A DNA stretch of 64,000 bases from Candidatus Omnitrophota bacterium. Lineage in GTDB: Bacteria; Omnitrophota; Gorgyraeia; Zapsychrales; JAHFFX01. The position numbers and the translations under genes were made by a program. The stretch spans positions 64,704 through 128,703 of the forward strand of contig JAHFFW010000003.1 in NCBI GenBank assembly GCA_023247725.1. Direction: 5' to 3'. Of the stretch, positions 4,561 through 61,927 are shown piece by piece; position 1 is the first letter of the stretch, and each line of letters begins with the position of its first letter. The notes below the pieces were generated by a model. That model saw only the letters and a list, made by a program, of their open reading frames with translations. It was not told the origin of the DNA and searched no databases.

Positions 4561-4617
4561 TCCAAAATTCTATAACTTATCCAAATTCCTGGACTTATAA
4601 AATAATTGAAATTCTTT

Positions 4618-5186: not shown

Positions 5187-5203
5187 GAAGTTCTGATCGG
5201 CTA

Positions 5204-6021: not shown

Positions 6022-6022
6022 T

Positions 6023-6433: not shown

Positions 6434-6828
6434 CGAGAATCAAAAATCTCAAGATTTTACAATCCTCCGGCGGATTCACGATTGTGGAGGTCCTCGTTGC
6501 TACTGTCATTTTTACCATCGCTGCCTTAGGAACATTTTCCACGATTGCCTCGATCCGCAAACCCGCTGCGGTTTCTGAACGCAAACTGCAAGGCGCTTAC
6601 TACGCCAAACAGATTCTGGAAGATCTTCGGCCTCAGGTCGACGCACGTAACTGGAACCCGGCCACCGGTCAATACAGCAGCGGCGATCTGACGATGGGAA
6701 CCCATCTTCTTAGTACGACCACGATTAACGGAACTCCTTATATATCCAGTTATGTTGTTTCAACGGTTGCTGGGACTCCCAACCTTTTTCAAGTTCAGGT
6801 GATGGTCAATTGGACCGAAATTCCTTGA
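6424..6828 (+). CDS. Prepilin-type pseudopilin (GspI/PilV-like)
   Basis: Internal ATG at 6424 gives MSITRIKNLKILQSSGGFTIVEVLVATVIFTIAAL. The longer ORF from 6346 overlaps the previous gene and lacks an RBS. Confidence 0.75.
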   Translation: MSITRIKNLKILQSSGGFTIVEVLVATVIFTIAALGTFSTIASIRKPAAVSERKLQGAYYAKQILEDLRPQVDARNWNPATGQYSSGDLTMGTHLLSTTTINGTPYISSYVVSTVAGTPNLFQVQVMVNWTEIP

Positions 6829-7463: not shown

Positions 7464-7569
7464 GATTTAACTTTTCAGAATTGAAGATTTTGGTGGGAGA
7501 GCAGCCCCAAATTTCCTTTTAGAGAATCTATGGTATCGAGTGTTGCGCCGGTCTTTTTCTATTTAAATC

Positions 7570-7642
7570 GGGTCGGTAGCTCAGTTGGGAGAGCGTCTGC
7601 TCCGCAAGCAGAAGGCCGGGGGTTCGACTCCCCCCCGATCCA
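7570..7642 (+). tRNA. tRNA-Ala (anticodon CGC)
   Basis: Cloverleaf folded by hand: acceptor GGGTCGG/CCGATCC with the G3:U70 Ala identity pair, D-arm GCTC-AGTTGGGA-GAGC, anticodon stem TCTGC/GCAGA with loop TCCGCAA, T-arm GGGGG-TTCGACT-CCCCC, discriminator A. CCA is not encoded. Position 33 is C rather than the usual U. Confidence 0.8.
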
Positions 7643-7662
7643 TTAATTTCAAATTTCATCCT

Positions 7663-8406
7663 GTGCATCGCTTTTATAGCCCATCGATTCTTTCTGTGGG
7701 GACAACGATTGAAATCCTCGATCCCGCCGAGTTTCATCATCTGAAAAATGTTCTGCGGTTAAAGCTTCATGCGCCGGTAACGATTTTTGATGGGAAAGGC
7801 CAAGAAGCCTTCGGCATCATTGCGGCCATCAAGAAATCTTCCGCAACGGTACAGCTGCAAAAAGTGAAAAAATCGGAAGAAACAAAGCCCCGCCTCATTT
7901 TAGCCTGTGCCATTCCCAAAAATGCCAAATTCGAATTCATTATCGAAAAATGTACCGAATTAGGCATTGATGAACTGATCCCCATGCAAACCAGCCGCAC
8001 GATTGTGCGATTTTCGACTCAACAAAAAGAAAAAAAATTCCTCCGCTATCAAACCGTGGCCCTCAATGCGGCGAAACAATGCGTACGCTCGATGATCCCT
8101 CGCATTCATCCGGTGACTTCGTTCACGCAAGTTTTAAGACAACGCTCGCCCAATGGCCTCGGTCTTATTCCCATTCTGTTCGGAAATCGTCAACTGCTTC
8201 TGCCCGCGCTGCAACAAGCCATCAGCGCCCCTCAAATCATATTTCTGATCGGACCCGAGGGGGATTTTACAAAAGAAGAGGGGGCGGCCGCCGGCGCAGC
8301 GGGCTTCTCACCCGTATCATTAGGTCCAACGACATTAAAGGTGGACACAGCCGCCATTTCGGTCGTGGCGGCGGCTCATTTCGTTTTTGACGCGCACTCC
8401 CCTTGA
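7663..8406 (+). CDS. rsmE: 16S rRNA (uracil1498-N3)-methyltransferase RsmE
   Basis: HRFY N-terminal motif, PUA-like N domain, SPOUT-type C domain with LIGPEGDFT. The annotated ORF start at 7585 overlaps the tRNA, so the in-frame GTG at 7663 was chosen. Confidence 0.8.
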   Translation: MHRFYSPSILSVGTTIEILDPAEFHHLKNVLRLKLHAPVTIFDGKGQEAFGIIAAIKKSSATVQLQKVKKSEETKPRLILACAIPKNAKFEFIIEKCTELGIDELIPMQTSRTIVRFSTQQKEKKFLRYQTVALNAAKQCVRSMIPRIHPVTSFTQVLRQRSPNGLGLIPILFGNRQLLLPALQQAISAPQIIFLIGPEGDFTKEEGAAAGAAGFSPVSLGPTTLKVDTAAISVVAAAHFVFDAHSP

Positions 8407-23712: not shown

Positions 23713-25083
23713 TTATTCCTTCCGCAAATGCGACGGCAAAATATTGAGCTGCTGACGATACTTGCTGATCGTTCGGCGGGCGATGTTGAAACCTTTTTTC
23801 TGAAAATGTTCCTGCAGTTCCTGATCAGAGAGAGGGGCGGTCTTTTGTTCAGCATCAATCAAATCCTTGATCTCTTCTTTGATACTGCGGCTGGAGACGG
23901 GACCTTGTGTTTGATGGGGAAGACCTTGAGAAAAGAAAAACCGCAAGGGCACCAAGCCTTGCGGTGTATCCACATACTTGTTTTGGATGGCCCGGCTGAC
24001 GGTTGATTCATTATGGTTGATGGCGACAGCGACATCCTTGAGCGTCATGGGATGAATCGATAAGTGTGCTCCGCCAAAAAAATCTTTTTGCTTGTCTAGA
24101 ATATACTCCGCGATCTCCTTGATGGTTTGCCCTCGCTGCTCAAGGCTACGGATGAAATTCGTGGCATTGCGCAACTTCTCCTTCACAAATTCCTTCTCCG
24201 CCTCCTTGAGGTTTTTATCCAGAAGCAGTCTTTGATAAAGCAGGTTGATCCGCAGATTAGGCAACCCTTCCTGATTGACCGTCACTTGAAAACCTTCAAT
24301 GGGATCCTGGTGGATGATGACGTCGGGTTTGATATAAATATTGGCATTGATCGGACGGTAATTACGCGCAGGTTTTGGCTCGAGACTGGCGATTTTGTTC
24401 GCAGCGTCTTTAACCAGCTCTAAGCTTGTTGCCAATTTGCGGGCGATCTCACTATATTTGCGCGAGCCCACCTCGGCCAGAAATGAATCGATCATGGTGG
24501 CGCCCAAATCGGCAGGGTCATCATACTTAGCCGACAATTGAATCTTTAAACATTCCTTCAAATCACGGGAAGCAATTCCGACCGGTTCAAAATTCTGAAT
24601 TCGCTGCAAAACATGTTCAACCAAGGCCAGATGATTTGGGCAAAGGCTTTGGGCAATCTCATCGCAGGAGATCCGTAAATACCCATCTTCGTCCAAGTTC
24701 CCGATAATTGTTTCTCCAATTTTTAACTGCAGAGGTTCTGAAAATTCAAAGCGCAGCTGTTCTAGCAATGAATCTTCCAAAGGAAGTTCCTTAAAAAGAG
24801 GTTTTTCCTCCCAGCGTTCATCTTCGCTAAAAGACTCCATCCGTTGCAATCGGAGGATTTCTCTTTGGCGTTGAATGTTGTTTTTCGTGATGTCAGCATG
24901 AGCTGCCACAGAAACCATCTGGGGTTCATCTTCATTGATTTCTAAAAGGGGATTATTTTGCAATTCTTGTTCGATGGCAAGGTCAAGATCGGCCAATGGC
25001 AATGCGAGAATTGAGATCGATTGTTGCATGGAAGGAGCGAGGATGGTTTTTTGTACTTGGGACAAAGCAAGCTTTGTTTTCAT
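23713..25083 (-). CDS. rpoN: RNA polymerase sigma-54 factor
   Basis: N-terminal Gln/Leu-rich region I (LAPSMQQSISILALP), core-binding region, C-terminal HTH and RpoN box ARRTISKYR. Start taken at MKTKLALSQ. Confidence 0.93.
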   Translation of the reverse strand: MKTKLALSQVQKTILAPSMQQSISILALPLADLDLAIEQELQNNPLLEINEDEPQMVSVAAHADITKNNIQRQREILRLQRMESFSEDERWEEKPLFKELPLEDSLLEQLRFEFSEPLQLKIGETIIGNLDEDGYLRISCDEIAQSLCPNHLALVEHVLQRIQNFEPVGIASRDLKECLKIQLSAKYDDPADLGATMIDSFLAEVGSRKYSEIARKLATSLELVKDAANKIASLEPKPARNYRPINANIYIKPDVIIHQDPIEGFQVTVNQEGLPNLRINLLYQRLLLDKNLKEAEKEFVKEKLRNATNFIRSLEQRGQTIKEIAEYILDKQKDFFGGAHLSIHPMTLKDVAVAINHNESTVSRAIQNKYVDTPQGLVPLRFFFSQGLPHQTQGPVSSRSIKEEIKDLIDAEQKTAPLSDQELQEHFQKKGFNIARRTISKYRQQLNILPSHLRKE

Positions 25084-25224
25084 AGCAAGAAGTATACCAT
25101 ATTGCATTTTTTAAAGTAAAAATTTTTATCGGCACGACGAAATAGACCTCCGTAGATAAAAAACGCGTGGGATGTCCATTGATGTTTTTATTGGACAATA
25201 CCTTAAGTCGCTGCTGTGAGTTAT

Positions 25225-46454: not shown

Positions 46455-47657
46455 ATGCAGCTACTTTTTCTTGCGCCTCGCCTGCCTTTACCGGCCGATA
46501 CCGGCGGGAAAATCCGCACGTACCATATTTTGAATCAATTGGCTAAACGATTTACGGTGCACCTGGTCTGTTTTTCCTTCGATGAAAATGACCGGCCATG
46601 GGCCCATTCCTTGGAAAAAAAGGGATTGAAAATAACGTTGGTCCCGTATCAGGAACCGCCATTCTTTGCGAAAACCAGCCGGATTCTATTTTCGTCCTTG
46701 CCCTATTCCATTCTCAAATATTATTCCCGGGCGATGGAAAATGTTTTGGAACGATTGATTCAAGCGGAAAAATTCGACGCGGTGCATGTGGACCATTTGC
46801 ACATGGCTATTTACGGTTCTCGGTTTTCTGGCCAACCTCGCGTCCTGGATGAACACAATGTGGAGTACGTGATTCTCAGGCGCTGCGCGCAGATTGAGAA
46901 ATCCCGGATCAAAAAGAAAATTTTTATCGATCAGTCGCAGAAAATGCAGGCCTTTGAAATGCGCGCTGTCCACGGATTCTCCCGGTGTTTGACGGTGTCG
47001 TTAGAGGATTGCCGGTCTTTAATGAATGGGACTCTCGATGCCGGGCATTGCCAGGTGGTTCCCAACGGGGTCGATACCCAATATTTTCGTCCGGCCATCG
47101 GCATACCGAGGGATGAGGAACAAAGTTTGGTGTTCACCGGTTCCTTGGACTGGTGGCCGAATGAAGACGCCATTGTTTACTTTTGTCAGGATATTTTGCC
47201 GCAAATTTGGCGCCAATTGCCGCGATTAAAATTTGTGATCGTAGGAAAATCTCCCAGTCAGCGGATTCGGGCATTGATGGCCGCCGAACCGCGAATCGTG
47301 GTGACGGGAAGGGTTGACGATGTTCGTCCGTTTCTTTCTGCGGCGCGAGTTTTTGTTGTCCCTTTGCGCGTCGGCGGCGGCACGCGGCTGAAAATTCTCG
47401 AGGCGATGGCCATGCAAAAAGCGGTCGTATCGACCACGCTGGGAGCCGAGGGTATCCAATGCGCTTCGGGAAAAAATATTCTCATCGCCGACGAACCGCA
47501 GGACTTCGCCAGCCAGGTCGTGGCCCTGGTGCGTGACGAAGGCAGAGCCATGTCAATCGGCAAAGCGGGCCGTGACCTCGTATGTTCCACCTATGATTGG
47601 GAGATCGTGGGAAATAAATTGGAATCGATTTATCGGGAACTCTTCCATGCGAGTTAA
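46455..47657 (+). CDS. GT4 glycosyltransferase of the PEP-CTERM/EpsH1-associated sugar transferase type
   Basis: MQLLFLAPRLPLPADTGGKIRTYHILNQLAKRFTVHLVCF is the hallmark N-terminus of that family; RVGGGTRLKILEAMAMQKAVVST. Confidence 0.8.
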   Translation: MQLLFLAPRLPLPADTGGKIRTYHILNQLAKRFTVHLVCFSFDENDRPWAHSLEKKGLKITLVPYQEPPFFAKTSRILFSSLPYSILKYYSRAMENVLERLIQAEKFDAVHVDHLHMAIYGSRFSGQPRVLDEHNVEYVILRRCAQIEKSRIKKKIFIDQSQKMQAFEMRAVHGFSRCLTVSLEDCRSLMNGTLDAGHCQVVPNGVDTQYFRPAIGIPRDEEQSLVFTGSLDWWPNEDAIVYFCQDILPQIWRQLPRLKFVIVGKSPSQRIRALMAAEPRIVVTGRVDDVRPFLSAARVFVVPLRVGGGTRLKILEAMAMQKAVVSTTLGAEGIQCASGKNILIADEPQDFASQVVALVRDEGRAMSIGKAGRDLVCSTYDWEIVGNKLESIYRELFHAS

Positions 47658-49452
47658 AACCAAACAAGGTCAAATCAACGTTGGCAATATTCTCATGGGC
47701 GGATTCTTGACCGGAATCATCCTCGCCTTCATTGTTGCCTTTTTTCTCTACGGCATCTACAAAACTTATAAAGCGATGAAAGCCCCGCGGCGTTTTTCCG
47801 CGGTCGCGCCGGTTCCTCCCCAAGAAGGAACCACGTTGTTTGTGGCCTCCAGCCTTGACCGTATTTTTTCCGATGGAATGACCTTGAAAGAACCCGCCTT
47901 TTCGACGGAGGTTTCCCTTGCTCAGGCAAAAAATGAATATGAATCCTTCCAGGTGGTTGTTCAAACAACCAACACGGCACTTAAAAAGGTCTGGTTCGAG
48001 GTCTCCGACCTCATTGATCCCGCCTCCGGGGCCAGGATTGATCACGGCAATATCCTTTGGCGCGTGGTGGGCTATGTTCCGACGAAGCAACCGTATTATC
48101 CCGTCAAATTCGTAGGGAACTGGCCTGATCCTTTATTGCCCGCTCAACCGATCGATGTGGACGCACCGAAGACTCAACCATTTTGGTTTACCATTTACGT
48201 CCCCCAAAACGCTCAAGCCGGTCGCTATCAAGCAAAGATCTGGATGAAGGCCGAAGGACTTTCGACGCCTCGGGAAATTCCGGTATCTTTAAAGGTGTTC
48301 AATTTTGAATTGCCCAAACAAAACACCTTGAAAACCGCCTTTGATTTTTACGAAGGACAAACGTACAAACGTTATCCGCAAAAGGAGAATGAAAGTAACG
48401 AGGCTTATCAGGCCAGAATCGGTGCGCTCAATGACAAATTCCTCATCCTGATGCTGCAATACCGAATGAATCCGATCCTCAATGTGGATCCAACCTCTCC
48501 ATCAGATTTGGCCAGGGTGGATCGGTACCGCTGGTTTGGGCTCAATAACTTTTCCATCGGGAAAAAGGGAGGGACCTTCAACAATAATTGGCCGGCGACC
48601 GACGAGGAAATCGAGGCCTTGCGACCCGTTTATCAGGGCTATGGCGAAATGCTAAAATTCAACAAACTTCTTCCTTACAACTACATCTACACGTGGGACG
48701 AGGGGAATGTTGGCAATCCCCGCGTCGCAAAGATTTGTTCTATGATCCATCGGGCCTATCCGAAATTAAAAAATATGGTCTGTTACCACGGATTCTGGGA
48801 CCCGGCGGCGCAGCCGGACTGGGGAAAAGATATTGATATCTGGTGTTTTAATATTGATAATTTTGTCGAATCCCAAATGCGCCGAATCCAGCAAGCCGGA
48901 AAAGAAATGTGGATGTACATTTCGGGGCCCAGTGGTTTCTCCACGCCCAATTTGGCCATTGATTTTGATTCCATCGATTATCGCATCATTCCTTGGTTGT
49001 GCTGGAAATACGACATCCGCGGATTCCTTTATTGGTGTGTGAATTGGTGGCCTTTCGTTGATCCCTTCCAAAGTGCAGCGAACACTCAATGGGAACAAAA
49101 TGGCAATGGGTTGTTATTTTATCCGGGGCCGGAAGGCCCCATCGCGTCGTTGCGCGCCGAGCTTTTTCGCGACGGGATGGAAGATTACGAATATACACAA
49201 ATTCTTTTGCAGAATCTCTGGGCTTTTGAAGATCTGAGCCCCGCCTTCGGCTATAGTGCCTTAGTGAAAGAAATCAAAGGCATTTTGACGATGGATGACT
49301 CGCTCATCAAATCGATGTTTGAATACACGCGGGACGGTCGCATTTTATTCAAGCGCCGTCAGGCCATTGCGGAAAAGATCGAAGAGACTGACAAAATCCT
49401 CCGTGATTTAGCCGGCAAAAAAACCAAGATCTCTGCGACAGGTGCGGAATAA
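47647..49452 (+). CDS. Membrane-anchored hypothetical protein, possibly glycoside-hydrolase-like (DUF4091-type C-terminal region)
   Basis: N-terminal TM (ILMGGFLTGIILAFIVAFFLYGIY) and a large extracytoplasmic domain rich in W/Y (YHGFWDPAAQPDWGKDIDIWCFNIDNF...). The assignment rests on recalled family resemblance only. Confidence 0.3.
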   Translation: MRVKTKQGQINVGNILMGGFLTGIILAFIVAFFLYGIYKTYKAMKAPRRFSAVAPVPPQEGTTLFVASSLDRIFSDGMTLKEPAFSTEVSLAQAKNEYESFQVVVQTTNTALKKVWFEVSDLIDPASGARIDHGNILWRVVGYVPTKQPYYPVKFVGNWPDPLLPAQPIDVDAPKTQPFWFTIYVPQNAQAGRYQAKIWMKAEGLSTPREIPVSLKVFNFELPKQNTLKTAFDFYEGQTYKRYPQKENESNEAYQARIGALNDKFLILMLQYRMNPILNVDPTSPSDLARVDRYRWFGLNNFSIGKKGGTFNNNWPATDEEIEALRPVYQGYGEMLKFNKLLPYNYIYTWDEGNVGNPRVAKICSMIHRAYPKLKNMVCYHGFWDPAAQPDWGKDIDIWCFNIDNFVESQMRRIQQAGKEMWMYISGPSGFSTPNLAIDFDSIDYRIIPWLCWKYDIRGFLYWCVNWWPFVDPFQSAANTQWEQNGNGLLFYPGPEGPIASLRAELFRDGMEDYEYTQILLQNLWAFEDLSPAFGYSALVKEIKGILTMDDSLIKSMFEYTRDGRILFKRRQAIAEKIEETDKILRDLAGKKTKISATGAE

Positions 49453-50354
49453 TGGTTTGGAAAAAAATGGCCATCTTTTTGTTCGGCCTCCTCTTGGGAG
49501 TCGCATTCATTGGGGCTCTCGGCTCAGTGGCTTTTAAATACAGAGATAAAATCGATCTTGAGCGAATTCACAAAGTTTTTGACATCCTTCGTTCGAAATG
49601 GAGAAGCTCAAAGCTTTATAGAGAAGAATTTCGTCAACCTATTCAGGCAACCGGAGGATCAAGCTTTGGACCGCAGGGACAATTGACATTCGAATTGTAC
49701 CGTCAAGGAAAATTCCAAATCGATGGCTCTGGTTACGCCTGGCAAAAATCCGACCATTATGGAGATGTCGCGGTCATTCGTTCAACGCGTCCTCTTCCCC
49801 AAACTTATAAGATCACGATCGTTGCCGGAGCGATTGATTATGGACTGGAAAAGCTCGACGGTCTTTCGAACGACCCCCAATACCCGGAAGGGCCGGCCAA
49901 TGAGAATGGTTGTTATTTGTTGGCCATCACCGACGTCAATCCAGCGGGACATCACACCAATATCTGGTGGCATCAGCATCGCAAGCTGGTCGTGGATGTG
50001 GACAATAATGTGTGGGGCCACGGAATGCCCAACCCGATTTTTATGGTGTATTTTGATCGGGACAATAAAATGATGTCTTTTCCCGGCGAAGAGAAAACTT
50101 GGCAGCCGGATTGGCGCGCCGCCGCGCATTATGATCCCTCCCAATGGTACCGCATCGATTTGGAAAAAACCGCGGAGCGTTTTCTCTTTACCCTTTCGCA
50201 GGAAAACGGTCCGCTCCTCGCCAGAGGAGAAGCAGCCCTTAAGGACATCTGGCATGAAGACGGGAATCATTCCGATTACTTGGTCATCGGTGATCCGCAT
50301 GAAAATTATTACCAGGGGAGTTTTAAAATTAAAAGCATCGCCTTGAAACTATAG
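49452..50354 (+). CDS. Hypothetical protein with an N-terminal signal anchor
   Basis: MVWKKMAIFLFGLLLGVAFIGALG is followed by a 270-aa domain with no motif I recognise. Confidence 0.4.
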   Translation: MVWKKMAIFLFGLLLGVAFIGALGSVAFKYRDKIDLERIHKVFDILRSKWRSSKLYREEFRQPIQATGGSSFGPQGQLTFELYRQGKFQIDGSGYAWQKSDHYGDVAVIRSTRPLPQTYKITIVAGAIDYGLEKLDGLSNDPQYPEGPANENGCYLLAITDVNPAGHHTNIWWHQHRKLVVDVDNNVWGHGMPNPIFMVYFDRDNKMMSFPGEEKTWQPDWRAAAHYDPSQWYRIDLEKTAERFLFTLSQENGPLLARGEAALKDIWHEDGNHSDYLVIGDPHENYYQGSFKIKSIALKL

Positions 50355-50364: not shown

Positions 50365-51138
50365 ATGAGTTCGGGATTACCTCCTATATTAATGTACCAT
50401 GGCATTATCGATGTTGAGAAAAACTTCCCCGAAGACCGGGAACCCGGAGCTTCTCTTTATGATTTACCGCTAGCGGTCTTTCGTCAGCATTTGGAGTTTT
50501 TGAAGAAAAACAATTTCCAAGTCAACACATGTGATTCGGATAAAAAGAAAAATGGCGGCAAGCAGGTTGTCCTGACATTTGATGACGGAGAGATGAACAA
50601 CTTCCTTCACGTGTTTCCAATGTTGCAACAATACGACTTTCCGGCTTATTTTTTTATCACGGTCGATCGGATCGGGAAAAAAGGATATATGGATTGGCCC
50701 CATCTTAAAGTGATGATTCAAAATAATCTGATCATTGGTTCGCATGGGATGCGCCATGAGATTCTGACCAAGTTGAATGAAGCGGAGTTGGTCCAAGAGT
50801 TGCGGTTGTCTCGCAAAATTTTAGAAGATCGTCTTCAAAAAAATATTTTTAGCTTCTCGGTCCCGCGGGGATTTTTCAATCTGCGAATTTTAAAACTTGC
50901 GAAGGAGGCCGGTTATTCAGAAATTTTTGTTTCCGGTTGTCCGCAGAATTTACCGGATGAATGCTGGGGCCGAATCGCCGTCAAAAGCCGCTGGGGAACA
51001 GATCGGTTAGCCATGGCGTTGGAAGGGCGTATCCCTTTGAACGAAAAAATTTTTGAGGCGGTCAAAAATACAATCCAATCCTGCATAGGGGATGAAAACT
51101 ACGATCGGTGGCGGGACAAAATATTAATGAAGTCTTGA
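50365..51138 (+). CDS. Polysaccharide deacetylase (CE4 / NodB homology domain; the exosortase-locus-associated type)
   Basis: VVLTFDDGEMNNF (the TFDDG motif), GSHGMRHE, and further His/Asp metal-binding contexts. Confidence 0.85.
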   Translation: MSSGLPPILMYHGIIDVEKNFPEDREPGASLYDLPLAVFRQHLEFLKKNNFQVNTCDSDKKKNGGKQVVLTFDDGEMNNFLHVFPMLQQYDFPAYFFITVDRIGKKGYMDWPHLKVMIQNNLIIGSHGMRHEILTKLNEAELVQELRLSRKILEDRLQKNIFSFSVPRGFFNLRILKLAKEAGYSEIFVSGCPQNLPDECWGRIAVKSRWGTDRLAMALEGRIPLNEKIFEAVKNTIQSCIGDENYDRWRDKILMKS

Positions 51139-51304
51139 CCCTAATTTCAATCTTGTGGATAATAAAAACACCGGAGGATGTTGTCGGGAAAAAATTCGGG
51201 CACTCTTTCCCGACGAGAAATGACGGTTTGACAACAAAAGAGGGCCGTGTTATACTTCCAGCGTAATAAATCCCGTTCTTTTGTTCGTCAATGTTCTGAA
51301 GTGA

Positions 51305-51390
51305 TAAAGGCAAACCCGGGGAAACCCGGCGACGCAAAACTACAGGGCCTAAACCCTCGTTTATCGAGGCAAAGGTAGCCAGTTGCCAAA
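51305..51390 (+). ncRNA. Candidate cyclic-di-GMP-I (GEMM) riboswitch aptamer
   Basis: Read directly: GGCAAACC-[CCGGG-GAAA-CCCGG]-CGACGCAAAAC-TACA-GGGCCTAAACC-[CTCG-TTTAT-CGAG]-GCAAAGGTAGCC-AGTTGCC. This gives a GNRA-capped P2, an ACGCAAA(A/G)C linker, a GGCCUAAACC P3 segment and a P1 pairing GGCAA/TTGCC, matching GEMM-I hallmarks as I recall them. Confidence 0.6.
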
Positions 51391-51428
51391 ACAGAGAATA
51401 TTCAACCCGTCTTTATTTAACCTTCTAT

Positions 51429-51478
51429 GCCTATTCTTTGGTGTTTTGCGTGTGCCCGAGAATAGGGTTTTTATTTTC
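51429..51478 (+). terminator. Intrinsic terminator forming the riboswitch expression platform
   Basis: 8-bp stem CCTATTCT/AGAATAGG at 51430-51437 / 51459-51466, followed by GTTTTTATTTT. It lies 58 nt upstream of the RBS GGAAAGGAG and ATG 51536. Confidence 0.5.
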
Positions 51479-51535
51479 TGGTCAGATCATGTCCGTATGC
51501 TACTTTGGGTAACACAAGAGGGAAAGGAGTCAGGA

Positions 51536-53827
51536 ATGTCAGCTAATGAGTTAAGCAAAAGAGTTTTGCCCCTCGGTCTTATGTTTTTGTTCATGATGCC
51601 CTTGGCCTTACAGGCGTCGACATATTATGTCCGTCCGGATGGTGGCTCGGCAAGCCAGTGCACGGGGTTAAGCGATGCCCCTTATCCTGGTTCTGGCAAT
51701 AACCAAGCCTGTGCTTTTAATCATCCCTATTGGGCGCTGGCACCGCTGGGAAACAATCCGACTAAATTCGTCGGAGGAGACACACTGATCATTGATGGTT
51801 CTAATGGCGCCCAGTATATGATGGGATATGGAGCCCCGAATTCTGGCGACACCTCCATCTGTTATGCCAACTGGCCCTGGGATTGTTTCATGCGGCCGAT
51901 TCCTTCCGGACCCCGTCCCGACCAGCCGACGCGAATTCTGGGCAAGGGTTGGAATAACGGTTGCGCCAATCCGCCGCAATTGTGGGGCAATGAACGACCC
52001 AACACCATCATCAACTTAAATGGAAGCAGTAATGTCGAGGTGCAGTGTCTGGAAGTGACCGATCATTCCTCCTGCCAACTGGGAGGCCCAAGTCCTTGTA
52101 ATCGGGACAATCCTCCTTTCGGGCCTTGGGCGGTCACTGGCATTTCCGCATCCGATAGTTCGAATGTCTTACTAAAGAATCTCAATATCCATGGCTTGTA
52201 CCGCGGCCTTCACGCCGGCCGCTTGAAGGACTGGACTTTGGAAGACGTGAAGATTGTCGCGAATTCATTCGTTGGTTGGGATGGGGATATCGGCGCGTAC
52301 AATTCTTCCAATTCCGGGACGTTGAGTTTCAACCGGGTTAAAATCCTTTATAACGGTTGCGGGGAAACTTATCCGGATCGAAAGCCCTATAATTGTTACA
52401 GCCAGGACCAAGGCGGATATGGGGACGGATTGGGTACGCACCAGACCGGCGGCTACTGGATTTTTAATAATGTGGACTTCAGCCATAATGTTTCCGACGG
52501 ATTGGACCTTTTGTATCACAACGGCAATGGATCTATCACCATCAAGCGTTCTCGATTTGAAGGCAATGCCGGTAATCAGGTGAAGGTCAATGCCAATACC
52601 CTGATCGAAAATTCCTTGCTCGTAGGAAATTGTGGATACTTTAAAACGCAACCCTTCACCTATAATCCCAGCACGTTCAATAATTGTCGTGCTGCTGGCA
52701 GCACATTGGCTGCAGGGTTCGCAGCTGGCCGAACCATTGAAATCCGTAATTCGACGATCACGAGCAACGGCGATGTCGTGATCATGTCCTCCGGCGATGG
52801 TTGTAATGGAACCGAGGTCTTAAGGTCCAGGAATAATATCTTTTTGGGAGGAACGGAGTTTAATGACGGCTACGATCTTTCCGCTCTCTATTATGCGTCT
52901 GGCCGAACCGGTAATGGCGACGGGACTTGCGGCTCCGTGCCGTTTGATGACGATTATTCCGTGATTTGGAATACGAAGGGGAATAGCGCGGTCTGTTCCG
53001 GAAAACCTCATTCAAAATGTCTAGATCCGAAGCTCATCGGGCCGATTGTTCAATATTTCACTGGCGATACGTACAATCTTAATCTTTTATCGGATAGTCC
53101 AGCGAAAGATATTGCCTTGGTCATTGCGGGAATGTCGAGCCTTGATTACAACAGTTTTGATCGCGGATCGGTTTGGGATTCGGGTGCGTTCGAGTATGGA
53201 TCCGTTCCATCCGTGCCATCAGGAGGCGGGTCGAATCTGCTGCCGGTTTGTGGCAATGGAAAATTGGAGAGTCCTGAGCAATGCGATGACGGTAATCTCA
53301 ATAATGGTGACGGCTGCAATAACCTCTGTGTCAAAGAAATCGCTCTGACCCCGGTCTGCGGTAATGGGAAACTGGAAGGAACCGAGCAGTGCGATGATGG
53401 GAACCTCAATAATGGAGATGGCTGCAGCAGCGTTTGCGTTAAGGAAGCGCCAGTCTCGGTTTGCGGAAACGGAAAATTGGAAAGCGGCGAGCAATGCGAT
53501 GACGGTAATCTCGTTTCCGAGGATGGATGCAGCGCCAGCTGCCAAAAGGAACCTCCTCGGACGCCGGTCTGTGGTAACCGTGTCGTTGAACCCGGTGAAA
53601 CGTGTGATGATGGCAATACCATCGATGAAGATGGATGCAGCAGTCGTTGCCAAATCGAACCTCCCACAACCAAATTTGTTTGCGGTAACGGGAAAAGAGA
53701 GGGTTCGGAACAATGCGATGATGGGAATTTGAGAGATGGCGATGGGTGCAGCCACAGTTGCACAATTGAATATAAGTCTCCTCCTAGAAAACAACCGGTC
53801 ATAAAAAAGCGAGTCATTCGAAGGTAA
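51536..53827 (+). CDS. Secreted right-handed beta-helix (pectate-lyase-fold) protein with five C-terminal cysteine-rich repeats (CGNGxxExxEQCDDGNxxxGDGCSxxC)
   Basis: Signal peptide MSANELSKRVLPLGLMFLFMMPLALQAS. Parallel beta-helix sequence features (NVEVQCLEVTD, NVLLKNLNIHG, repeated N/G-rich rungs). Five ~35-aa Cys-rich repeats of the Myxococcus-type disulfide repeat. No PEP-CTERM motif. Confidence 0.7.
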   Translation: MSANELSKRVLPLGLMFLFMMPLALQASTYYVRPDGGSASQCTGLSDAPYPGSGNNQACAFNHPYWALAPLGNNPTKFVGGDTLIIDGSNGAQYMMGYGAPNSGDTSICYANWPWDCFMRPIPSGPRPDQPTRILGKGWNNGCANPPQLWGNERPNTIINLNGSSNVEVQCLEVTDHSSCQLGGPSPCNRDNPPFGPWAVTGISASDSSNVLLKNLNIHGLYRGLHAGRLKDWTLEDVKIVANSFVGWDGDIGAYNSSNSGTLSFNRVKILYNGCGETYPDRKPYNCYSQDQGGYGDGLGTHQTGGYWIFNNVDFSHNVSDGLDLLYHNGNGSITIKRSRFEGNAGNQVKVNANTLIENSLLVGNCGYFKTQPFTYNPSTFNNCRAAGSTLAAGFAAGRTIEIRNSTITSNGDVVIMSSGDGCNGTEVLRSRNNIFLGGTEFNDGYDLSALYYASGRTGNGDGTCGSVPFDDDYSVIWNTKGNSAVCSGKPHSKCLDPKLIGPIVQYFTGDTYNLNLLSDSPAKDIALVIAGMSSLDYNSFDRGSVWDSGAFEYGSVPSVPSGGGSNLLPVCGNGKLESPEQCDDGNLNNGDGCNNLCVKEIALTPVCGNGKLEGTEQCDDGNLNNGDGCSSVCVKEAPVSVCGNGKLESGEQCDDGNLVSEDGCSASCQKEPPRTPVCGNRVVEPGETCDDGNTIDEDGCSSRCQIEPPTTKFVCGNGKREGSEQCDDGNLRDGDGCSHSCTIEYKSPPRKQPVIKKRVIRR
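53243..53770 (+). repeat. Five tandem ~105-bp coding repeats (the Cys-rich modules of the 51536 gene)
   Basis: Direct DNA repeats ccggt(t/c)tg(t/c)gg(c/t)aatgg(a/g)aaa(t/c)tggaa... repeated five times. They also create spurious long antisense ORFs. Confidence 0.8.
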
Positions 53828-53928
53828 GAATGACGAAAGATGCCGGGAAGGGCCCCCAGACCTTTCCCGGCGTCAACCCTTGAATCAAATCCCTAGACCT
53901 TTTTGACCAAAATCAATCGAATTATGGC

Positions 53929-53957
53929 TTGACAAGCTCTTCCAGCCTGCTAATAAT
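53929..53957 (+). promoter_or_regulatory. Sigma70-like promoter (TTGACA-N16-TAATAAT) in front of the second pseudopilin operon
   Basis: TTGACA at 53929-53934 and TAATAAT at 53951-53957; about 60 nt upstream of ATG 54018. Confidence 0.4.
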
Positions 53958-54017
53958 CGTTCTTGCCCGGCTTCCTCCAAGAATTCACGTTGCACCAAGT
54001 AACTTCTTTTATCCTCA

Positions 54018-54404
54018 ATGAAGAGAATGAAAACCGCCAAGGGTCTCACGCTGGTTGAGTTGCTCATTGCCGTGTTTCTGCTTTCTGTCGGTATCGCCAG
54101 CACCCTCATGTTTTTTTCGAATGCCATGCTCTCGGCGGATTTTGCCGGGGACATCAGCGTCGCTTCGACCCATGCCGAACATGTTCTTGAAGAGATGAAG
54201 TCTCGTCGGAGCCTAGAAGAGATCCAGGGCACCAATTGGCAAGAATGGGCCTTGCAACAGGATTTCAATATGCTGCCGAATGAAAGGGTGGAGGTCAACT
54301 TCGGCAATATTGAAGGTGCCCTTATGGATGTTACAGCCCAAATCCATTGGATCAAACGGGCCCGCGATAATCAGGTTTCTTTTATGACGACCTTATCCCG
54401 ATGA
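54018..54404 (+). CDS. Prepilin-type protein (PilV/GspI-like minor pilin)
   Basis: MKRMKTAKGLTLVELLIAVFLLSVGIAS; possibly starts at ATG 54027. Confidence 0.75.
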   Translation: MKRMKTAKGLTLVELLIAVFLLSVGIASTLMFFSNAMLSADFAGDISVASTHAEHVLEEMKSRRSLEEIQGTNWQEWALQQDFNMLPNERVEVNFGNIEGALMDVTAQIHWIKRARDNQVSFMTTLSR

Positions 54405-54883
54405 AGATACAAAAGCGGAAGGCTTTCACCTTACTGGAAATTTTGGTGACGGTCGCCCTGTTCACCTTTTTGGTGGCAGCGGTCTATCAGGCTTTTTTGG
54501 TAGGAAATCGATCCTGGACTAGTTATAACTACAGGGTCTCCATGCAAAGAGAATTGCGCTGGACCCTTTATGCATTGGTCAAGGATCTGCGAGAAGCCAA
54601 GGAAATTTTGGTGACTCAAGATGATACGAAGAGCGTTTTGAGCTTTAATAAACCAGGATCTGGCATCATCATTTACACCTGGTTCAAAGCGGGTGATCGG
54701 GCACAGCATTTGCTCCGGCAAGAAGAATCCAAAGAACGAACGATTGCCCAGCATGTTTCAAATCTGGAATTTATTCAGCCTTCCACCAAAGAAATTTTCG
54801 TTGATATCACGGTCACAGAGAGACCATTATTCGCCGCGCCATTGAGCTTGAATTTGAAACAAAAAGTCAAGGTCCGAATATAA
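54401..54883 (+). CDS. Prepilin-type protein (PilW/GspJ-like minor pilin)
   Basis: MKIQKRKAFTLLEILVTVALFTFLVAAVYQAFL. Confidence 0.75.
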   Translation: MKIQKRKAFTLLEILVTVALFTFLVAAVYQAFLVGNRSWTSYNYRVSMQRELRWTLYALVKDLREAKEILVTQDDTKSVLSFNKPGSGIIIYTWFKAGDRAQHLLRQEESKERTIAQHVSNLEFIQPSTKEIFVDITVTERPLFAAPLSLNLKQKVKVRI

Positions 54884-54897: not shown

Positions 54898-56037
54898 ATG
54901 GGCCACAGAATTTCAAACAATAGGGGAGCTGCCCTCATCCTGGCCTATATTGTCATGGCTGCTTTAGTGACTCTTTCCGCCGGGTTTGCCCTTTCCACAT
55001 TCAATGAACTCAACGATGCCCGTCGATACCGGGATTCGTTGGCTGCCTTTTGGCTGGCGGAATCGGCCCTGGCGTCTTTTCTGCAAAATACCTCCATGCT
55101 GGATAAATCCGGAGCCATGAATATGACTTACCCTCAGGGCAGCGTGGTTTTACAAAAAGATGATTCTTATCCCACGAAAAGGTTGGTCACCGCGACGGGC
55201 AACGTGGGTGGGACCAAACGCAGTTTGCAGTTGGAGTTTCCCGCGTTAGCGCCGGAGGTATTCAATAATACGGTTTCGGTCAAAGGGGATATTCTTATTT
55301 CTGGGAAAAAATCCAATCTTGCGTTTAACGACAAAACCCGGATCAGCGGCCAGGTCGCCAAGAGCTCGCAGTTTTCTACGGTTAATTTTGAAGACCTCAA
55401 AGAAAAAACCGATTCGCATCTGGTTTCCATGCTGTATCCCGACGCAAATAATAATGGAGTCGTGGACGAATTTGAGGATTTTGTTCAGGTGAATCGAAAT
55501 TTGGTCACGACCTACCCGAAGGAGGAAGTCATTTATGTCAAGGGCAACGATACTTATACGGTTGTTCCCAGCAGTGCCTTGAAGGGCAAAAAGATTATTT
55601 TCGTGGAAGGAAGCCGCAGCGGCAAAGGCAATGTGATCATTCAATATATGGATGGCTGGCAAGATGACGAAAATTTAACCATCATCGCGACCGGCAATGT
55701 CACCTTCAATCAGCTGGGGATGGGCCAAACCAATTCGCAGCTTAATGTCATTGCCTGGGGCGGTTATTCGGAAACTGCCGCTTTGCCGGGAACTCGTCGA
55801 GGCATGATCTATACGCATGGAATCGCGAGTTTTGATGCCATTGATGAAACCTCGATCACTTACGGCAGTGTCGTGGCCAATGAAGGCTTAAAAATCAAAG
55901 AAATCTGGTCATATAAATCCTTTTACTATGCGGATACTCGCATCAATGGAGTTGTGCCTCCAGGTTTTGAAGGTCTTATCGGTGGAAGACTTTCGAGTGG
56001 GTATGCCGTCAAACCTAATGCATGGCGGGAAATTTAG
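54898..56037 (+). CDS. PilX-N-domain minor pilin / large pseudopilin
   Basis: MGHRISNNRGAALILAYIVMAALVTLSAGFALSTFNELNDARRYRDSLAAFWLAESAL has the PilX N-terminal architecture; 379 aa. Confidence 0.65.
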   Translation: MGHRISNNRGAALILAYIVMAALVTLSAGFALSTFNELNDARRYRDSLAAFWLAESALASFLQNTSMLDKSGAMNMTYPQGSVVLQKDDSYPTKRLVTATGNVGGTKRSLQLEFPALAPEVFNNTVSVKGDILISGKKSNLAFNDKTRISGQVAKSSQFSTVNFEDLKEKTDSHLVSMLYPDANNNGVVDEFEDFVQVNRNLVTTYPKEEVIYVKGNDTYTVVPSSALKGKKIIFVEGSRSGKGNVIIQYMDGWQDDENLTIIATGNVTFNQLGMGQTNSQLNVIAWGGYSETAALPGTRRGMIYTHGIASFDAIDETSITYGSVVANEGLKIKEIWSYKSFYYADTRINGVVPPGFEGLIGGRLSSGYAVKPNAWREI

Positions 56038-56038
56038 A

Positions 56039-56611
56039 ATGAGCCACAGAATTTATCTTGTGATTGGAATTGGGATTACGATTTTTGTGATTTTTTCCGC
56101 AATCGTTAACCGTTCCATCAATAAAACTTTTCGCGGACCGGAGATTGCACAACCAAAGGCACAAAAAACATCACCATCACCACCGCCGGAAAAAAAGTCA
56201 AAGCTTCCCGAACCTTTGGTTGTGCCGCCAAAGTCGGTTGGCCGACATACCTTGGACCCCGATGATCCTGCGCGGTTCGGAATTCTTGTGCAAAAAGAAG
56301 GGCAGGTCAAAACCCAGTCTCAATGGGACATCGATATGGATCGGGTTTTGATCCGTTCCCAAGTCCCAATACAGAAAGCGCCGGCCTTTGCTCAAACCAA
56401 AGTAACCGCAAAGGAATTTCAAAAAAAAATGCAACTCGTCAATGAACGGATTACACAATGCGAACGCCTCGCGGCTAACGATCCCAGCAATGAAGAAGCT
56501 AGGCAAAAACTACAGACCTTTTACATGCTCAAGTCGACACTGGCCTCTTTGGAACATGCGATTGTTATCCCCGAATCCTCCAATTCCGGTTTAGAAAATT
56601 CGCCGAAGTGA
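56039..56611 (+). CDS. Membrane-anchored Pro-rich / coiled-coil protein; hypothetical (possible pilus-assembly accessory)
   Basis: TM YLVIGIGITIFVIFSAIV, a Pro-rich stretch KTSPSPPPEKKSKLPEPLVVPP, and a C-terminal helical region. Confidence 0.4.
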   Translation: MSHRIYLVIGIGITIFVIFSAIVNRSINKTFRGPEIAQPKAQKTSPSPPPEKKSKLPEPLVVPPKSVGRHTLDPDDPARFGILVQKEGQVKTQSQWDIDMDRVLIRSQVPIQKAPAFAQTKVTAKEFQKKMQLVNERITQCERLAANDPSNEEARQKLQTFYMLKSTLASLEHAIVIPESSNSGLENSPK

Positions 56612-59689: not shown

Positions 59690-59756
59690 TATATAAGGAT
59701 GCGTTGTTGTATAGGAAAAGAATTTCAACTTTTTGAACCCTACAACTCATTACACT

Positions 59757-60605
59757 ATGCAACCATCCAAACTGAACTCCCCAAGGTATCTGGTAATAAG
59801 TCTTCTTTTACTGATGGTCTTTGGTTCTTTACCGAGACAGGCAGAGGCCGTGACTTTTGTAAAGCCACAGGACGCTCGCCTCGTAATTGCAGAGGGGAAG
59901 ATTAATGAAATTCCAGAAAATTTGCCTTCCGAGTCTAAATCTCATGCCCCTGAACCTGCGACTCTAGCTTTGTTTGGCAGCGGAATCTTTGGAATGATCG
60001 TTAGTTTTTTGAAGAGGGCTTATTTGGTTGCCAAAAGAATTTTTGATATAATCGTGTCTTTATTAGGCATTTTAATTCTATCGCCTTTATTTCTTCTGGC
60101 TGCAATTCTTATCAAAAGCTCATCCAAGGGGCCGATTCTCTATAAACAAATTCGGGTTGGCCAAAAGGGGAAACTCTTTGAAATTTACAAATTTCGCTCT
60201 ATGAAAATGGATGCGGAAAAGGAGTGCGGGCCAGTCTGGGCCAAGAAAGATGATGACCGCTTGATTACGGTAGGAAAATTTTTAAGAATGAGTCGAATTG
60301 ATGAGTTGCCCCAATTTTTCAATATCCTCAAGGGCGATATGAGCTTGATCGGTCCTAGGCCCGAACGGCCGGTTTTTGTGGAAAAGTTTAAAGAAATGAT
60401 CCCAGATTACGAAAAGCGATTATTGGTTAAGCCAGGGATCACCGGTTTAGCCCAGGTTTGGCATAAGTACGATGAAACCATTAAGGATGTACGTAAAAAG
60501 ATCAAATACGATGTTCTTTACATTAAGAAACTGAATTTTGGGACTGATGTGAGAATTTTTTTGAGAACCTTTCTGGTCGTTTTAACAGGGCAGGGGGCCC
60601 AATAG
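59757..60605 (+). CDS. Polyprenyl-phosphate sugar phosphotransferase (bacterial sugar transferase, small WbaP/PssY-like type) whose open frame begins with a signal peptide plus an internal PEP-CTERM-like motif
   Basis: Catalytic domain RIFDIIVSLLGILILSPLFLLAAILIK...FEIYKFRSM...SLIGPRPERP. N-terminally in the same frame: signal peptide MQPSKLNSPRYLVISLLLLMVFGSLPRQAEA, a 35-aa spacer, then PEPATLALFGSGIFGMIVSFLKR. Confidence 0.8.
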   Translation: MQPSKLNSPRYLVISLLLLMVFGSLPRQAEAVTFVKPQDARLVIAEGKINEIPENLPSESKSHAPEPATLALFGSGIFGMIVSFLKRAYLVAKRIFDIIVSLLGILILSPLFLLAAILIKSSSKGPILYKQIRVGQKGKLFEIYKFRSMKMDAEKECGPVWAKKDDDRLITVGKFLRMSRIDELPQFFNILKGDMSLIGPRPERPVFVEKFKEMIPDYEKRLLVKPGITGLAQVWHKYDETIKDVRKKIKYDVLYIKKLNFGTDVRIFLRTFLVVLTGQGAQ

Positions 60606-60686: not shown

Positions 60687-61553
60687 ATGAAAAAGTCATT
60701 CATTACAATTGGGGCATTGCTCATCTGCACAGCTCCAGTTTGGGCTCAGCCTTTTTCCGCGCCCATGGGCAGCGATACCTACGGAATCAGTCAAGGAGGA
60801 GCCAATAATCTTTTGATCCCGACGCCTAACGACGATAACGATAATCCCGGGCCTTATGGCGGAACCCCTTATACTCTAGGTGGAGGACCCAATCCGGCTG
60901 ACATCAATGACGCTATCAATCTATTATTGGGCACAAACTATGTCCATAATTCCGACGTGGATTTTCTTCGCCATACTGGACCGGATAATGCCTGGCAGGA
61001 TTTAAGTTCCCAAAATCAACAGGGACCTTTCGTTTTTATTTCGTTAACCGCAGATTTTACTAACAGCCTTTATACATACGACGTCGGTGATCCGACCACT
61101 CTTTATCAAGTCATTCCCGGCCAGACAGGATACGGTTTTGTGGGTGACGGAAGCGCAGGAAAGCCGTTTGTTGGCGGGGTCAATCCTTTATCGTCAAACA
61201 ATTTTGGCTGGGCTCTGGTGAGTGATTATAATGGCACGGAATATATTTGGGATTCTAACCCGGCGTTCAATCCGGATGATTTAGATCACATGCTAACCTA
61301 TCATTTGGCTAACCTCCAGGGTCGTACCGTTTATGTCGATGTCGATGGAAATATTCAGCAATATAAATTTAACGATCCTTACCTTTTGGCTTGGGAAGAC
61401 CTTCCATTACGAAATGGTAAACTTGGGGACGAAGATTACGACGATTCCATATTTCTGGTTGATCGAGTTCGGCCTATACCAGAACCCATCAGTTTAGTCT
61501 TATTGGCCAGTGGCTTCATGGGAATGATCGGATTGAAAAGAAAAATAGGATAA
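60687..61553 (+). CDS. PEP-CTERM sorting-domain protein (exosortase substrate)
   Basis: Signal peptide MKKSFITIGALLICTAPVWAQ; C-terminal PIPEPISLVLLASGFMGMIGLKRKIG. Confidence 0.9.
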   Translation: MKKSFITIGALLICTAPVWAQPFSAPMGSDTYGISQGGANNLLIPTPNDDNDNPGPYGGTPYTLGGGPNPADINDAINLLLGTNYVHNSDVDFLRHTGPDNAWQDLSSQNQQGPFVFISLTADFTNSLYTYDVGDPTTLYQVIPGQTGYGFVGDGSAGKPFVGGVNPLSSNNFGWALVSDYNGTEYIWDSNPAFNPDDLDHMLTYHLANLQGRTVYVDVDGNIQQYKFNDPYLLAWEDLPLRNGKLGDEDYDDSIFLVDRVRPIPEPISLVLLASGFMGMIGLKRKIG

Positions 61554-61597: not shown

Positions 61598-61927
61598 ATG
61601 ATTAGTAAGCTCATCCGCAATGCCAATGTAGCTATCCTTAGCGTGCTTCTACCTTACATCTATGGTTGCTCTGGGGGGGGAGGTGGGGGTGGCAATTCAC
61701 TTTCCGAACTTTTGGGACCAGGAGCAGGAACTGGCGCGGGAGCAACGACTGCAGGAGCCGGCAGCGGGATCGATGCTGGTTTTCTTGCTTCGAGTTTATC
61801 TACCTCGAGCGAAGGCTTAGGAAACCATATTGCTTCAATCCATAATCCTGAGCCAACAACCATGGCCTTATTAGGTTCTGGCATTATGGCCATGGCCTTT
61901 TTAATGAATAAAAGCAAAAAATCATAA
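61598..61927 (+). CDS. Small Gly/Ala/Ser-rich protein with both a lipoprotein signal peptide and a PEP-CTERM domain
   Basis: Lipobox LLPYIYGC followed by Gly7. Low-complexity middle. C-terminal NPEPTTMALLGSGIMAMAFLMNKSKKS. Confidence 0.85.
   Translation: MISKLIRNANVAILSVLLPYIYGCSGGGGGGGNSLSELLGPGAGTGAGATTAGAGSGIDAGFLASSLSTSSEGLGNHIASIHNPEPTTMALLGSGIMAMAFLMNKSKKS

Follow-up and report, generated by a model that had tools for sequence, protein, structure and literature searches.

A c-di-GMP-I riboswitch conserved upstream of a secreted beta-helix protein in Omnitrophota exopolysaccharide loci, with predicted OFF polarity

The class I riboswitches for c-di-GMP (cyclic diguanosine monophosphate) of Clostridioides difficile are uniformly OFF switches, including one that precedes the gene of a secreted release protease, ZmpI/PPEP-1 (PMC6366702). 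ON switches also occur in class I, such as Bc2, which lies before a collagen adhesin (PMC6366702). At the level of matrix turnover, the beta-helix lyase RbmB of Vibrio cholerae degrades the organism's own matrix polysaccharide, Vibrio polysaccharide (VPS; PMC11637428, PMC12993940). Here we describe a c-di-GMP-I riboswitch and the gene behind it, which encodes a secreted beta-helix protein with five Cys-rich repeats, in a 64,000-nucleotide (nt) stretch of DNA from a Candidatus Omnitrophota bacterium (contig JAHFFW010000003.1, positions 64,704 to 128,703; hereafter the window, with its first letter as position 1). We assign a probability of roughly 55% to the overall reading that this gene encodes a c-di-GMP-repressed, secreted beta-helix glycan enzyme that remodels the cell's own extracellular polysaccharide (EPS). 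Aptamer class, repeat family, and fold were all known before; what is added here is a riboswitch-enzyme module conserved across EPS loci of Omnitrophota, the OFF logic predicted for it, and the size and tightness of an uncharacterized protein family.

The beta-helix gene looks like a stand-alone transcription unit composed of a promoter, a c-di-GMP-I aptamer, an intrinsic terminator, and the coding sequence. Its leader holds the following elements:

51228–51256, + strand: sigma-70-like promoter (TTGACA, 17 nt, TG-TATACT) 43 nt upstream of the aptamer, matching the consensus at 11 of 12 positions and carrying an extended -10 TG
51290–51297, + strand: 5′ flank AAUGUUCU, predicted by constrained folding to pair with 51395–51402 and thereby lengthen the closing helix in the folded aptamer
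51299–51390, + strand: c-di-GMP-I (GEMM-I) aptamer, Rfam RF01051
51332–51340, + strand: aptamer core ACGCAAAAC, a perfect complement of GUUUUGCGU (51443–51451) in the terminator loop and part of the predicted ligand-free anti-terminator
51392–51402, + strand: switching strand CAGAGAAUAUU, directly 3′ of the aptamer, predicted by folding to pair with 51290–51297 when the aptamer is folded and with the terminator 5′ arm UAUUCUUUG when it is not
51430–51477, + strand: intrinsic terminator 40 nt after the aptamer, with a hairpin at 51430–51466 (CCUAUUCU...AGAAUAGG, −14 kcal/mol) followed by U5-A-U4

The aptamer matches RF01051 over the whole model (positions 1–87 of 87) at 72.2 bits against a gathering score of 35 (E = 3.3e-12) and is the only one found in the window. 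In the cmscan alignment it contains a GAAA tetraloop of the GNRA type, the ACGCAAA junction, the GUUGCC 3′ strand, and the G of GGCAAAC, all of which are also present in relatives. The conserved G, A, and C are those we take to be Vc2 positions G20, A47, and C92. A covariance model built in this study from six aptamers likewise recovers the window aptamer, and placed an aptamer directly upstream of the gene and on the same strand in 14 loci (L001, L002, L004–L009, L012–L015, L017, and L019). In one further locus (L003) the aptamer is also present by eye, broken by insertions of several hundred nt. The module of aptamer, terminator, and beta-helix gene thus occurs in 16 of 18 testable Omnitrophota loci, the window included; two loci (L010 and L018) are outside this count because their upstream sequence is missing. 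Only L011 and L016 lack the aptamer, and both lie outside an EPS context. Among 60 loci from other phyla, the aptamer was not linked to the gene, with only three matches, 4–8 kb away. The preliminary description of this DNA, made from the sequence alone, had called the protein the cargo of the riboswitch, and both the Rfam match and the conserved aptamer-gene link agree with this.

The related aptamers vary in two ways. Those of L001, L002, L005, and L012 best match the Rfam family c-di-GMP-I-GGC (RF03167; 59.5–63.7 bits against a gathering score of 59), the best match of the window aptamer being RF01051, and relatives differ by a covarying C-G to U-A pair (GGC...ACGC versus GGU...ACAC). Furthermore, several related aptamers (L003 at 7440–7870, L009, L013, L019, L006, and L008) carry insertions at two fixed sites, one before the (A/G)CAAAGC junction and one after GCUAU. 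The shortest measure about 40 nt and the longest, in L003, several hundred nt; all leave the flanking core and the terminator intact.

The polarity of the switch was assessed from the leader sequence. Fifteen related leaders keep the terminator hairpin and its U-tract; in their alignment 93.9% of cells are paired compared to 42–54% when slid, and two pairs show compensatory U-A to C-G changes. We rejected the assignment of this terminator to the upstream deacetylase gene, since it sits downstream of both the promoter-like site and the aptamer. In relatives, the near-invariant terminator 5′ arm CCUAUUCUUUGUGU is complementary to the aptamer core ACACAAAGCUAUAGG. This core-to-arm duplex has an energy of −10 to −14 kcal/mol, with z ≤ −1.9 versus shuffled cores in 10 of 14 leaders, and the anti-terminator alignment has 82.6% of cells paired, compared to 29–53% when slid. 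For the window itself, folding with the aptamer enforced returned the flank helix together with the terminator; the free anti-terminator fold reached −46.9 kcal/mol, versus −37.2 kcal/mol for the aptamer-locked fold. With no ligand constraint, the 5′ arm was paired upstream with a probability of 0.79, of which 0.72 fell on the linker 51392–51402. When the leaders were ended before the 3′ arm, the 5′ arm was paired upstream with a probability of at least 0.5 in 10 of 15. A self-contained terminator whose 5′ arm competes with the aptamer or the flank of its closing helix (P1) amounts to an OFF layout. By folding and complementarity, the leader therefore has the makeup of a transcriptional OFF riboswitch, i.e. 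a downstream terminator and a mutually exclusive anti-terminator that uses aptamer or closing-helix sequence, and OFF polarity with expression at low c-di-GMP appears likely.

The window riboswitch shares its aptamer class (RF01051) and its terminator platform with the C. difficile Cd1 (flgB) and zmpI/PPEP-1 riboswitches, and like the latter it would control just one gene, whose secreted enzyme product would reverse attachment or break up matrix (PMC6366702). It differs in that the polarity here is predicted and in that the product is a beta-helix protein, probably a glycanase, rather than a protease. Moreover, most Omnitrophota relatives appear to use the aptamer core ACACAAAGCUAUAGG as the anti-terminator strand instead of the closing-helix 3′ strand, and several carry the large aptamer insertions described above. 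As a separate observation, the terminator loop of the window (51438–51455) looks like a diverged tandem duplication, UCUUUGGUG followed by UUUUGCGUG, of the relatives' UCUUUGUGU, with a unit of 9 nt. The second loop copy matches the window-specific substitutions of the aptamer core (ACGC, AAAAC).

The coding part of the unit and its product are organized as follows (aa, amino acids):

51524–51529, + strand: Shine-Dalgarno sequence AAGGAG, 6 nt before the ATG, read from the sequence
51536–53827, + strand: coding sequence of 763 aa plus stop
51536–51619, + strand: predicted Sec-type signal peptide (aa 1–28) with a hydrophobic core and an AXA-like site, predicted cleavage between ALQA and ST
51620–53215, + strand: right-handed parallel beta-helix domain (aa 29–560), from AlphaFold2, Foldseek, and conservation
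53246–53761, + strand: five Cys-rich acidic repeats (aa 571–742), TIGR02232 and PF13948
53762–53824, + strand: basic C-terminal tail TIEYKSPPRKQPVIKKRVIRR without a transmembrane segment or PEP-CTERM
53842–53871, + strand: 11-bp GC-rich hairpin after the stop, without a U-tract, a possible 3′ end or stabilizer read from the sequence
53929–53957: promoter-like site before the pseudopilin genes

The reading frame ends at 53827, and ATG 51536 is its credible start because AAGGAG sits 6 nt upstream and the longer TTG frame begins inside the riboswitch; the TTG start at 51383 was rejected for this reason. An identical protein (P0001) is present in public data. The gene looks monocistronic, as it has its own promoter and terminator upstream, and its 3′ hairpin is followed by a fresh promoter-like site before the pseudopilins. 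At the N-terminus, MSANELSKR provides a K/R n-region, followed by an 18-aa hydrophobic core (mean Kyte-Doolittle value 1.93) and the predicted cleavage site, in line with the signal peptide claimed previously; aa 4–20 form a helix in the AlphaFold2 model. The tail holds 8 K+R among the last 25 aa (mean Kyte-Doolittle value −1.14), and relatives have similar basic ends after their last repeat. Neither a PEP-CTERM (PF07589) match nor a hydrophobic tail segment was found in the beta-helix protein, which is hence not an exosortase substrate, as had been stated.

The ~530-residue beta-helix body is rich in Gly, Asn, and Ser and contains 16 Cys, eight of them invariant. An AlphaFold2 model built with an alignment of homologues has 502 residues with a predicted local distance difference test score (pLDDT) of at least 90 and displays the ladder of short strands typical of a beta-helix over aa 132–478. 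In a Foldseek search against the PDB, all significant matches were right-handed beta-helix proteins, nearly all of them carbohydrate-active. The best were the GH136 enzyme LnbX (4.7e-8) and the PL9 enzyme Pel9A (2e-7; template modeling score 0.54 on the target), and further matches included the AlgE4 and AlgE6 epimerases, PL6 and other alginate lyases, a PL9 rhamnogalacturonan lyase, GH110, AlgG, phage tailspikes, and RbmB. From the viral library, Foldseek returned pectate-lyase-superfamily and tailspike proteins, i.e. the protein resembles phage depolymerases. Together, the model and the Foldseek matches identify the fold as a right-handed parallel beta-helix of stacked three-strand coils, and the comparison with GH28 and PL folds proposed earlier thus returned a beta-helix with GH136 and PL9 as best matches.

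At the sequence level, identity to the fold matches is only 8–16%, and phmmer found no match for the window protein among the PDB sequences. A profile of 72 homologues against the same sequences produced only a 40-residue GH110 match (E = 0.038). The pectate-lyase-like beta-helix proposed in the preliminary description holds through AlphaFold2, Foldseek, and PF13229-matching homologues; the window protein itself has no Pfam Beta_helix (PF13229) or Pectate_lyase match at E ≤ 1. About half of the homologues match PF13229, and several at 45–65% identity exceed its cut-off of 25.9 bits. Pel9A (PDB 1RU4) and LnbX (5GQC) share the right-handed parallel beta-helix with the window protein at 13–14% sequence identity; this likeness is one of fold, and the window family differs in its eight invariant Cys. 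The window protein has no match to the Pel9A-like_beta_helix family PF22842 and thus falls outside PL9 by this measure; one homologue (P0071) reaches 24.8 bits over a 45-residue N-terminal cap, under the cut-off of 25.2, and also weakly matches DUF1565. NCBI annotation names homologues choice-of-anchor Q (NF041518), and the anchors or modules attached at the C-terminus of the family vary, as in NF041518 proteins. The window protein stays below this cut-off (18.6 bits at aa 506–554 versus 25), and the family name carries no functional meaning.

The family is large, tightly conserved, and uncharacterized. A word-indexed search found more than 2300 relatives of the window protein, an exhaustive search of cluster representatives (50% identity) yielded 1014 clusters at E ≤ 1e-3, of which 564 reached E ≤ 1e-30, and a scan of species-representative genomes gave 325 encoding stretches. 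Sources include Omnitrophota (some labelled 'Planctomycetales'), Chloroflexota, Acidobacteriota, Myxococcota, Bipolaricaulia, and others. A search of the available literature library returned nothing on this beta-helix family, nor anything linking the aptamer class, the repeat family, and the fold. Identity over the whole domain is 44–66% across 71 homologues from several phyla, and 41 columns are invariant among the 72 homologues, including D176, H219, D251, Y295, D297, D321, D324, N344, K350, R385, and the eight Cys. The spacing of D297, D321, D324, and K350 is suggestive of the PL9 Ca2+/Lys site, as judged from sequence positions. The fold and the conserved acidic and basic residues look like those of polysaccharide lyases, hydrolases, and epimerases. 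Since ~50% identity across phyla and invariant D, H, K, R, Y, and N residues fit an enzyme better than a scaffold or adhesin, the N-terminal domain is probably an enzyme acting on a glycan. Doubled architectures occur as well: L012 (4689–9820) carries two tandem beta-helix paralogues (~1000 and ~630 aa) behind one riboswitch, and elsewhere single proteins contain the beta-helix domain twice, such as P0122 (1691 aa).

The window EPS locus opens at about 25.7 kb, where Wza-like, Wzz/GNVR, ATPase, and ABC/Wzt genes stand together with numerous glycosyltransferase genes, and ends with true PEP-CTERM proteins (60687–61553 and 61598–61927). As previously described, the beta-helix gene lies between two sets of genes:

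50365–51138: CE4 deacetylase gene
54018–54883: two prepilin-type (pseudopilin) genes

According to tblastn, the Omnitrophota gene order runs from Wzy through GT4-GT4, GT4, a GH123-like gene, a hypothetical gene, and the CE4 deacetylase to the riboswitch and beta-helix gene, and continues with two pseudopilins, two hypotheticals, GT2, the exosortase EpsH, EpsI, and a priming sugar transferase. The neighboring proteins in syntenic loci are mostly 30–70% identical to those of the window. Because of this fixed slot in an exosortase/PEP-CTERM EPS locus, the likeliest job of the protein is to cut or remodel the cell's own EPS. Taken alone, the assignment of the own EPS as substrate, with a role in dispersal or trimming, is plausible at somewhat less than even odds. 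The proposed EPS-trimming role is analogous to that of RbmB, although RbmB (PDB 9OZD) is only a weak fold match (rank 41, E = 6e-3) and has no sequence relationship to the window protein. To our knowledge, RbmB is not riboswitch-controlled.

The same slot could accommodate a biosynthetic EPS modifier comparable to AlgG or AlgE, which would act alongside the CE4 deacetylase on the polymer as it is made, either in the periplasm or on the cell surface, with the riboswitch tuning EPS composition and not degradation. AlgE enzymes consist of a beta-helix A-module followed by R-module repeats, which the combination of beta-helix and repeats in the window protein recalls. The Azotobacter AlgE C5-epimerases, found at fold ranks 5, 7, and 11, are likewise secreted, with a beta-helix catalytic module before tandem acidic repeats; AlgE4, AlgE6, and AlgG stand at ranks 5, 7, and 14, and the gene occupies its fixed place beside the deacetylase in all syntenic loci. 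The window repeats, however, are four-Cys TIGR02232 units and not RTX-type R-modules, no epimerase motif was identified, and no sequence match to epimerase families was obtained with Pfam on the window protein or with the homologue profile against the PDB. In addition, one would expect a modifier needed during synthesis to be made together with the synthesis enzymes, which does not fit repression by c-di-GMP should the predicted OFF polarity hold, and outside EPS loci the family is common as a solitary gene for a secreted protein. We therefore consider a biosynthetic modifier improbable.

This wide distribution bears in turn on a third possibility, namely that the enzyme is directed against foreign polymers, e.g. 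those in the cell envelope of a host or prey or polysaccharides from the surroundings. It would then be produced by free cells at low c-di-GMP, and its position within the EPS locus would be a matter of history. Many phyla carry the family as a stand-alone secreted gene, some members are fused to dockerin or GDSL esterase domains or lie beside GH3 or GH114 genes, as is typical of polymer degraders, and the fold resembles phage depolymerases. The fixed EPS-locus slot with a riboswitch in all syntenic Omnitrophota loci, by contrast, ties the function to the locus, and the riboswitch-less copies in L011 and L016 are precisely those outside it. A foreign substrate thus receives little weight from us compared to the preferred reading of an enzyme acting on the locus's own EPS.

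Several neighbors merit a brief description. Just upstream of the deacetylase lie a GH123-like gene (47533–49452) and a gene for a 300-aa protein without an assigned family (49452–50354), both kept in syntenic loci at 53–63% identity. In an Ardenticatenaceae locus (L082, 4637–7957), a dockerin-bearing homologue adjoins a 1106-aa protein with BNR/Sortilin repeats and GH114, the endo-alpha-1,4-polygalactosaminidase family. The GH123-like and CE4 neighbors and the one GH114 neighbor hint at an amino-sugar polymer, which is anecdotal. Downstream of the pseudopilins, 54898–56608 encodes two conserved proteins without a Pfam or NCBIfam match, the first of which (379 aa) has a pilin-like hydrophobic N-terminus; the pseudopilins and these two proteins may form a minor-pilin complex tied to the EPS locus. 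The priming sugar transferase (59733–60605; Bac_transf, TIGR03025) carries a PEP-CTERM-like motif at aa 72–91, in an N-terminal extension before the transferase domain, which is an unusual internal position. The gene rpoN (sigma-54; 23713–25107, − strand) precedes the first EPS gene (Wza-like, 25753), which is on the other strand, by a few hundred bases. At the start of the window, a type II secretion or type IV pilus cluster (92–6828) comprises a secretin (92–988), an MshEN ATPase (1001–2734), a T2SSF platform protein (2751–4001), and pilin-like proteins (5251–6021 and 6346–6828). MshEN is a known c-di-GMP-binding domain. If it binds c-di-GMP here, the cluster may constitute another point of c-di-GMP input within the window, and the beta-helix protein may be exported through it.

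C-terminal to the beta-helix, five repeats of the form VCGNGxxExxExCDDGNxxxxDGCxxxC follow each other at start-to-start distances of 35–37 aa. The description as five Myxococcus-type repeats is accurate: TIGR02232 (204 bits versus a cut-off of 20.8, E = 1.4e-61) and PF13948 DUF4215 (120.7 bits versus 27, E = 3e-35) each match five stretches above their cut-offs. Each repeat has four Cys (C-x10-C-x10-C-x3-C; 20 in all five) and not six, as had been stated. In the AlphaFold2 model the repeats have a pLDDT below 60, so that the model does not resolve their fold.

On the DNA level, the repeats correspond to five 84-nt cores spaced 105–111 nt apart, with 63–74% identity to the reference copy. Pairwise identity is 54–74%, the longest common exact run is 24 nt with 7–14 nt for most pairs, and residues identical between repeats use the same codon in just 51% of cases. 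Tandem Repeats Finder reported no 105-bp array in 51000–54200; the divergence at the DNA level is too great for it. The divergence and the codon differences imply that the repeats are old and kept by selection at the protein level, and the divergence makes the window copy a poor substrate for homologous recombination. Copy number nevertheless varies. P0121, the second member of the 90%-identity cluster (ENA assembly ERZ27297570), has 835 aa and seven repeats and is otherwise identical to the window protein, with surrounding genes that match those of the window. Its extra sequence is an exact 72-aa two-repeat insertion in which repeat 1 is duplicated exactly; five versus seven repeats reflects either strain-level copy-number variation or assembly collapse. 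Close relatives have 2, 3, 5, 6, or 10 DUF4215 copies. Of the direct DNA repeats with recombinational copy change suggested in the preliminary description, the change in copy number is therefore borne out (five versus seven; 2–10 in relatives), whereas sequences only 54–74% identical argue against recombination between them.

The repeats of TIGR02232/PF13948 are here one of several interchangeable C-terminal modules. Close Omnitrophota relatives either end after the beta-helix (~557 aa) or continue with 2–10 DUF4215 repeats. Other arrangements include ten copies of another four-Cys repeat with a low-complexity tail (L004, 1148 aa), three DUF4215 repeats with Ig/CBM-like domains (L001), and Pro/Thr/Ser-rich tails (L012); in more distant homologues the partner is a dockerin, GDSL esterase, PKD, Big, CarboxypepD_reg, or type IX secretion system (T9SS) sorting domain. 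Such variable C-termini are typical of a secreted catalytic domain that is combined with exchangeable parts for spacing, binding, or anchoring.

The repeats also invite a structural role, in which a positively acting riboswitch, or expression in the biofilm state, would supply a matrix component or adhesin whose beta-helix binds EPS and whose Cys-rich repeats cross-link or space it. The gene is indeed part of a locus for EPS biosynthesis, a protein from the adhesive trails of a diatom contains DUF4215 repeats (bioRxiv 10.1101/2023.03.06.531300), and ON polarity has precedent among class I riboswitches, e.g. Bc2 (PMC6366702). Such a role conflicts with the leader, in which the terminator has both of its arms downstream of the aptamer and its 5′ arm is in competition with aptamer or flank sequence, an OFF layout. 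It also conflicts with the protein, since many invariant charged residues and ~50% identity across phyla are unusual for a scaffold, and since the repeats are dispensable or swapped in close relatives (0–10 copies, other modules). We regard a scaffold or adhesin as improbable. Regarding the role under c-di-GMP control proposed in the preliminary description, EPS-modifying or matrix-scaffold, the former part may thus hold and the positive-sense scaffold part is unlikely, given the OFF layout and the enzyme-like conservation.

In the mechanism we propose for the preferred reading of a c-di-GMP-repressed glycan enzyme, the aptamer with bound c-di-GMP and its closing-helix extension would hold the competing strands, so that the terminator forms and transcription stops before the gene. 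At low c-di-GMP, the post-aptamer segment and the ACGCAAAAC junction would pair with the terminator 5′ arm and loop, and the gene would be read through. The product would be exported via Sec as a disulfide-stabilized beta-helix, followed by five acidic repeats of four Cys each that form a stalk, and by a short basic end. It would then cut or remodel the polysaccharide made by the locus itself as the cell exits the state of high c-di-GMP in which matrix is built.

Six observations weigh against this reading. The OFF polarity comes solely from folding predictions and sequence complementarity. Within these, the anti-terminator helix lacks compensatory covariation (0 pairs in the in-register alignment), because both of its sides hardly vary, and core-to-arm complementarity is weak in 4 of 14 leaders. 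Equilibrium folds that include the full terminator favor termination in most leaders even when unconstrained, and the switch must therefore be kinetic; riboswitch switching usually is. In most leaders such folds do not tell the free from the bound state, a distinction seen only when folding is cut off at the decision point, before the 3′ arm. Regarding the product, some beta-helix proteins are adhesins, with PfbA at rank 23 of the fold matches, which would favor the scaffold or adhesin role. Lastly, outside Omnitrophota the family has no EPS-locus link or conserved context, so that its substrate need not be the cell's own EPS.

A more far-reaching version combines these elements. In this version, the protein would represent a new beta-helix family of polysaccharide-cleaving enzymes, recruited in Omnitrophota as a c-di-GMP-repressed self-matrix depolymerase, so that these uncultured, nano-sized bacteria would possess a hard-wired RNA switch for leaving an exosortase-type EPS; in most relatives the ligand-binding junction of the aptamer would serve as an anti-terminator toehold, in an aptamer that tolerates insertions of hundreds of nt. 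We put this forward as a tentative proposal that is rather unlikely to be right in full.

If the reading is true, the locus would provide cis-encoded, c-di-GMP-repressed matrix turnover in a phylum without a cultured model. It would also offer a first functional handle on a beta-helix family of ~1000 clusters without an assigned activity, and the conserved leader would be a compact natural OFF switch. Should the substrate of the enzyme be the EPS of the locus, the protein would further be a tool for characterizing PEP-CTERM/exosortase-type polysaccharides.

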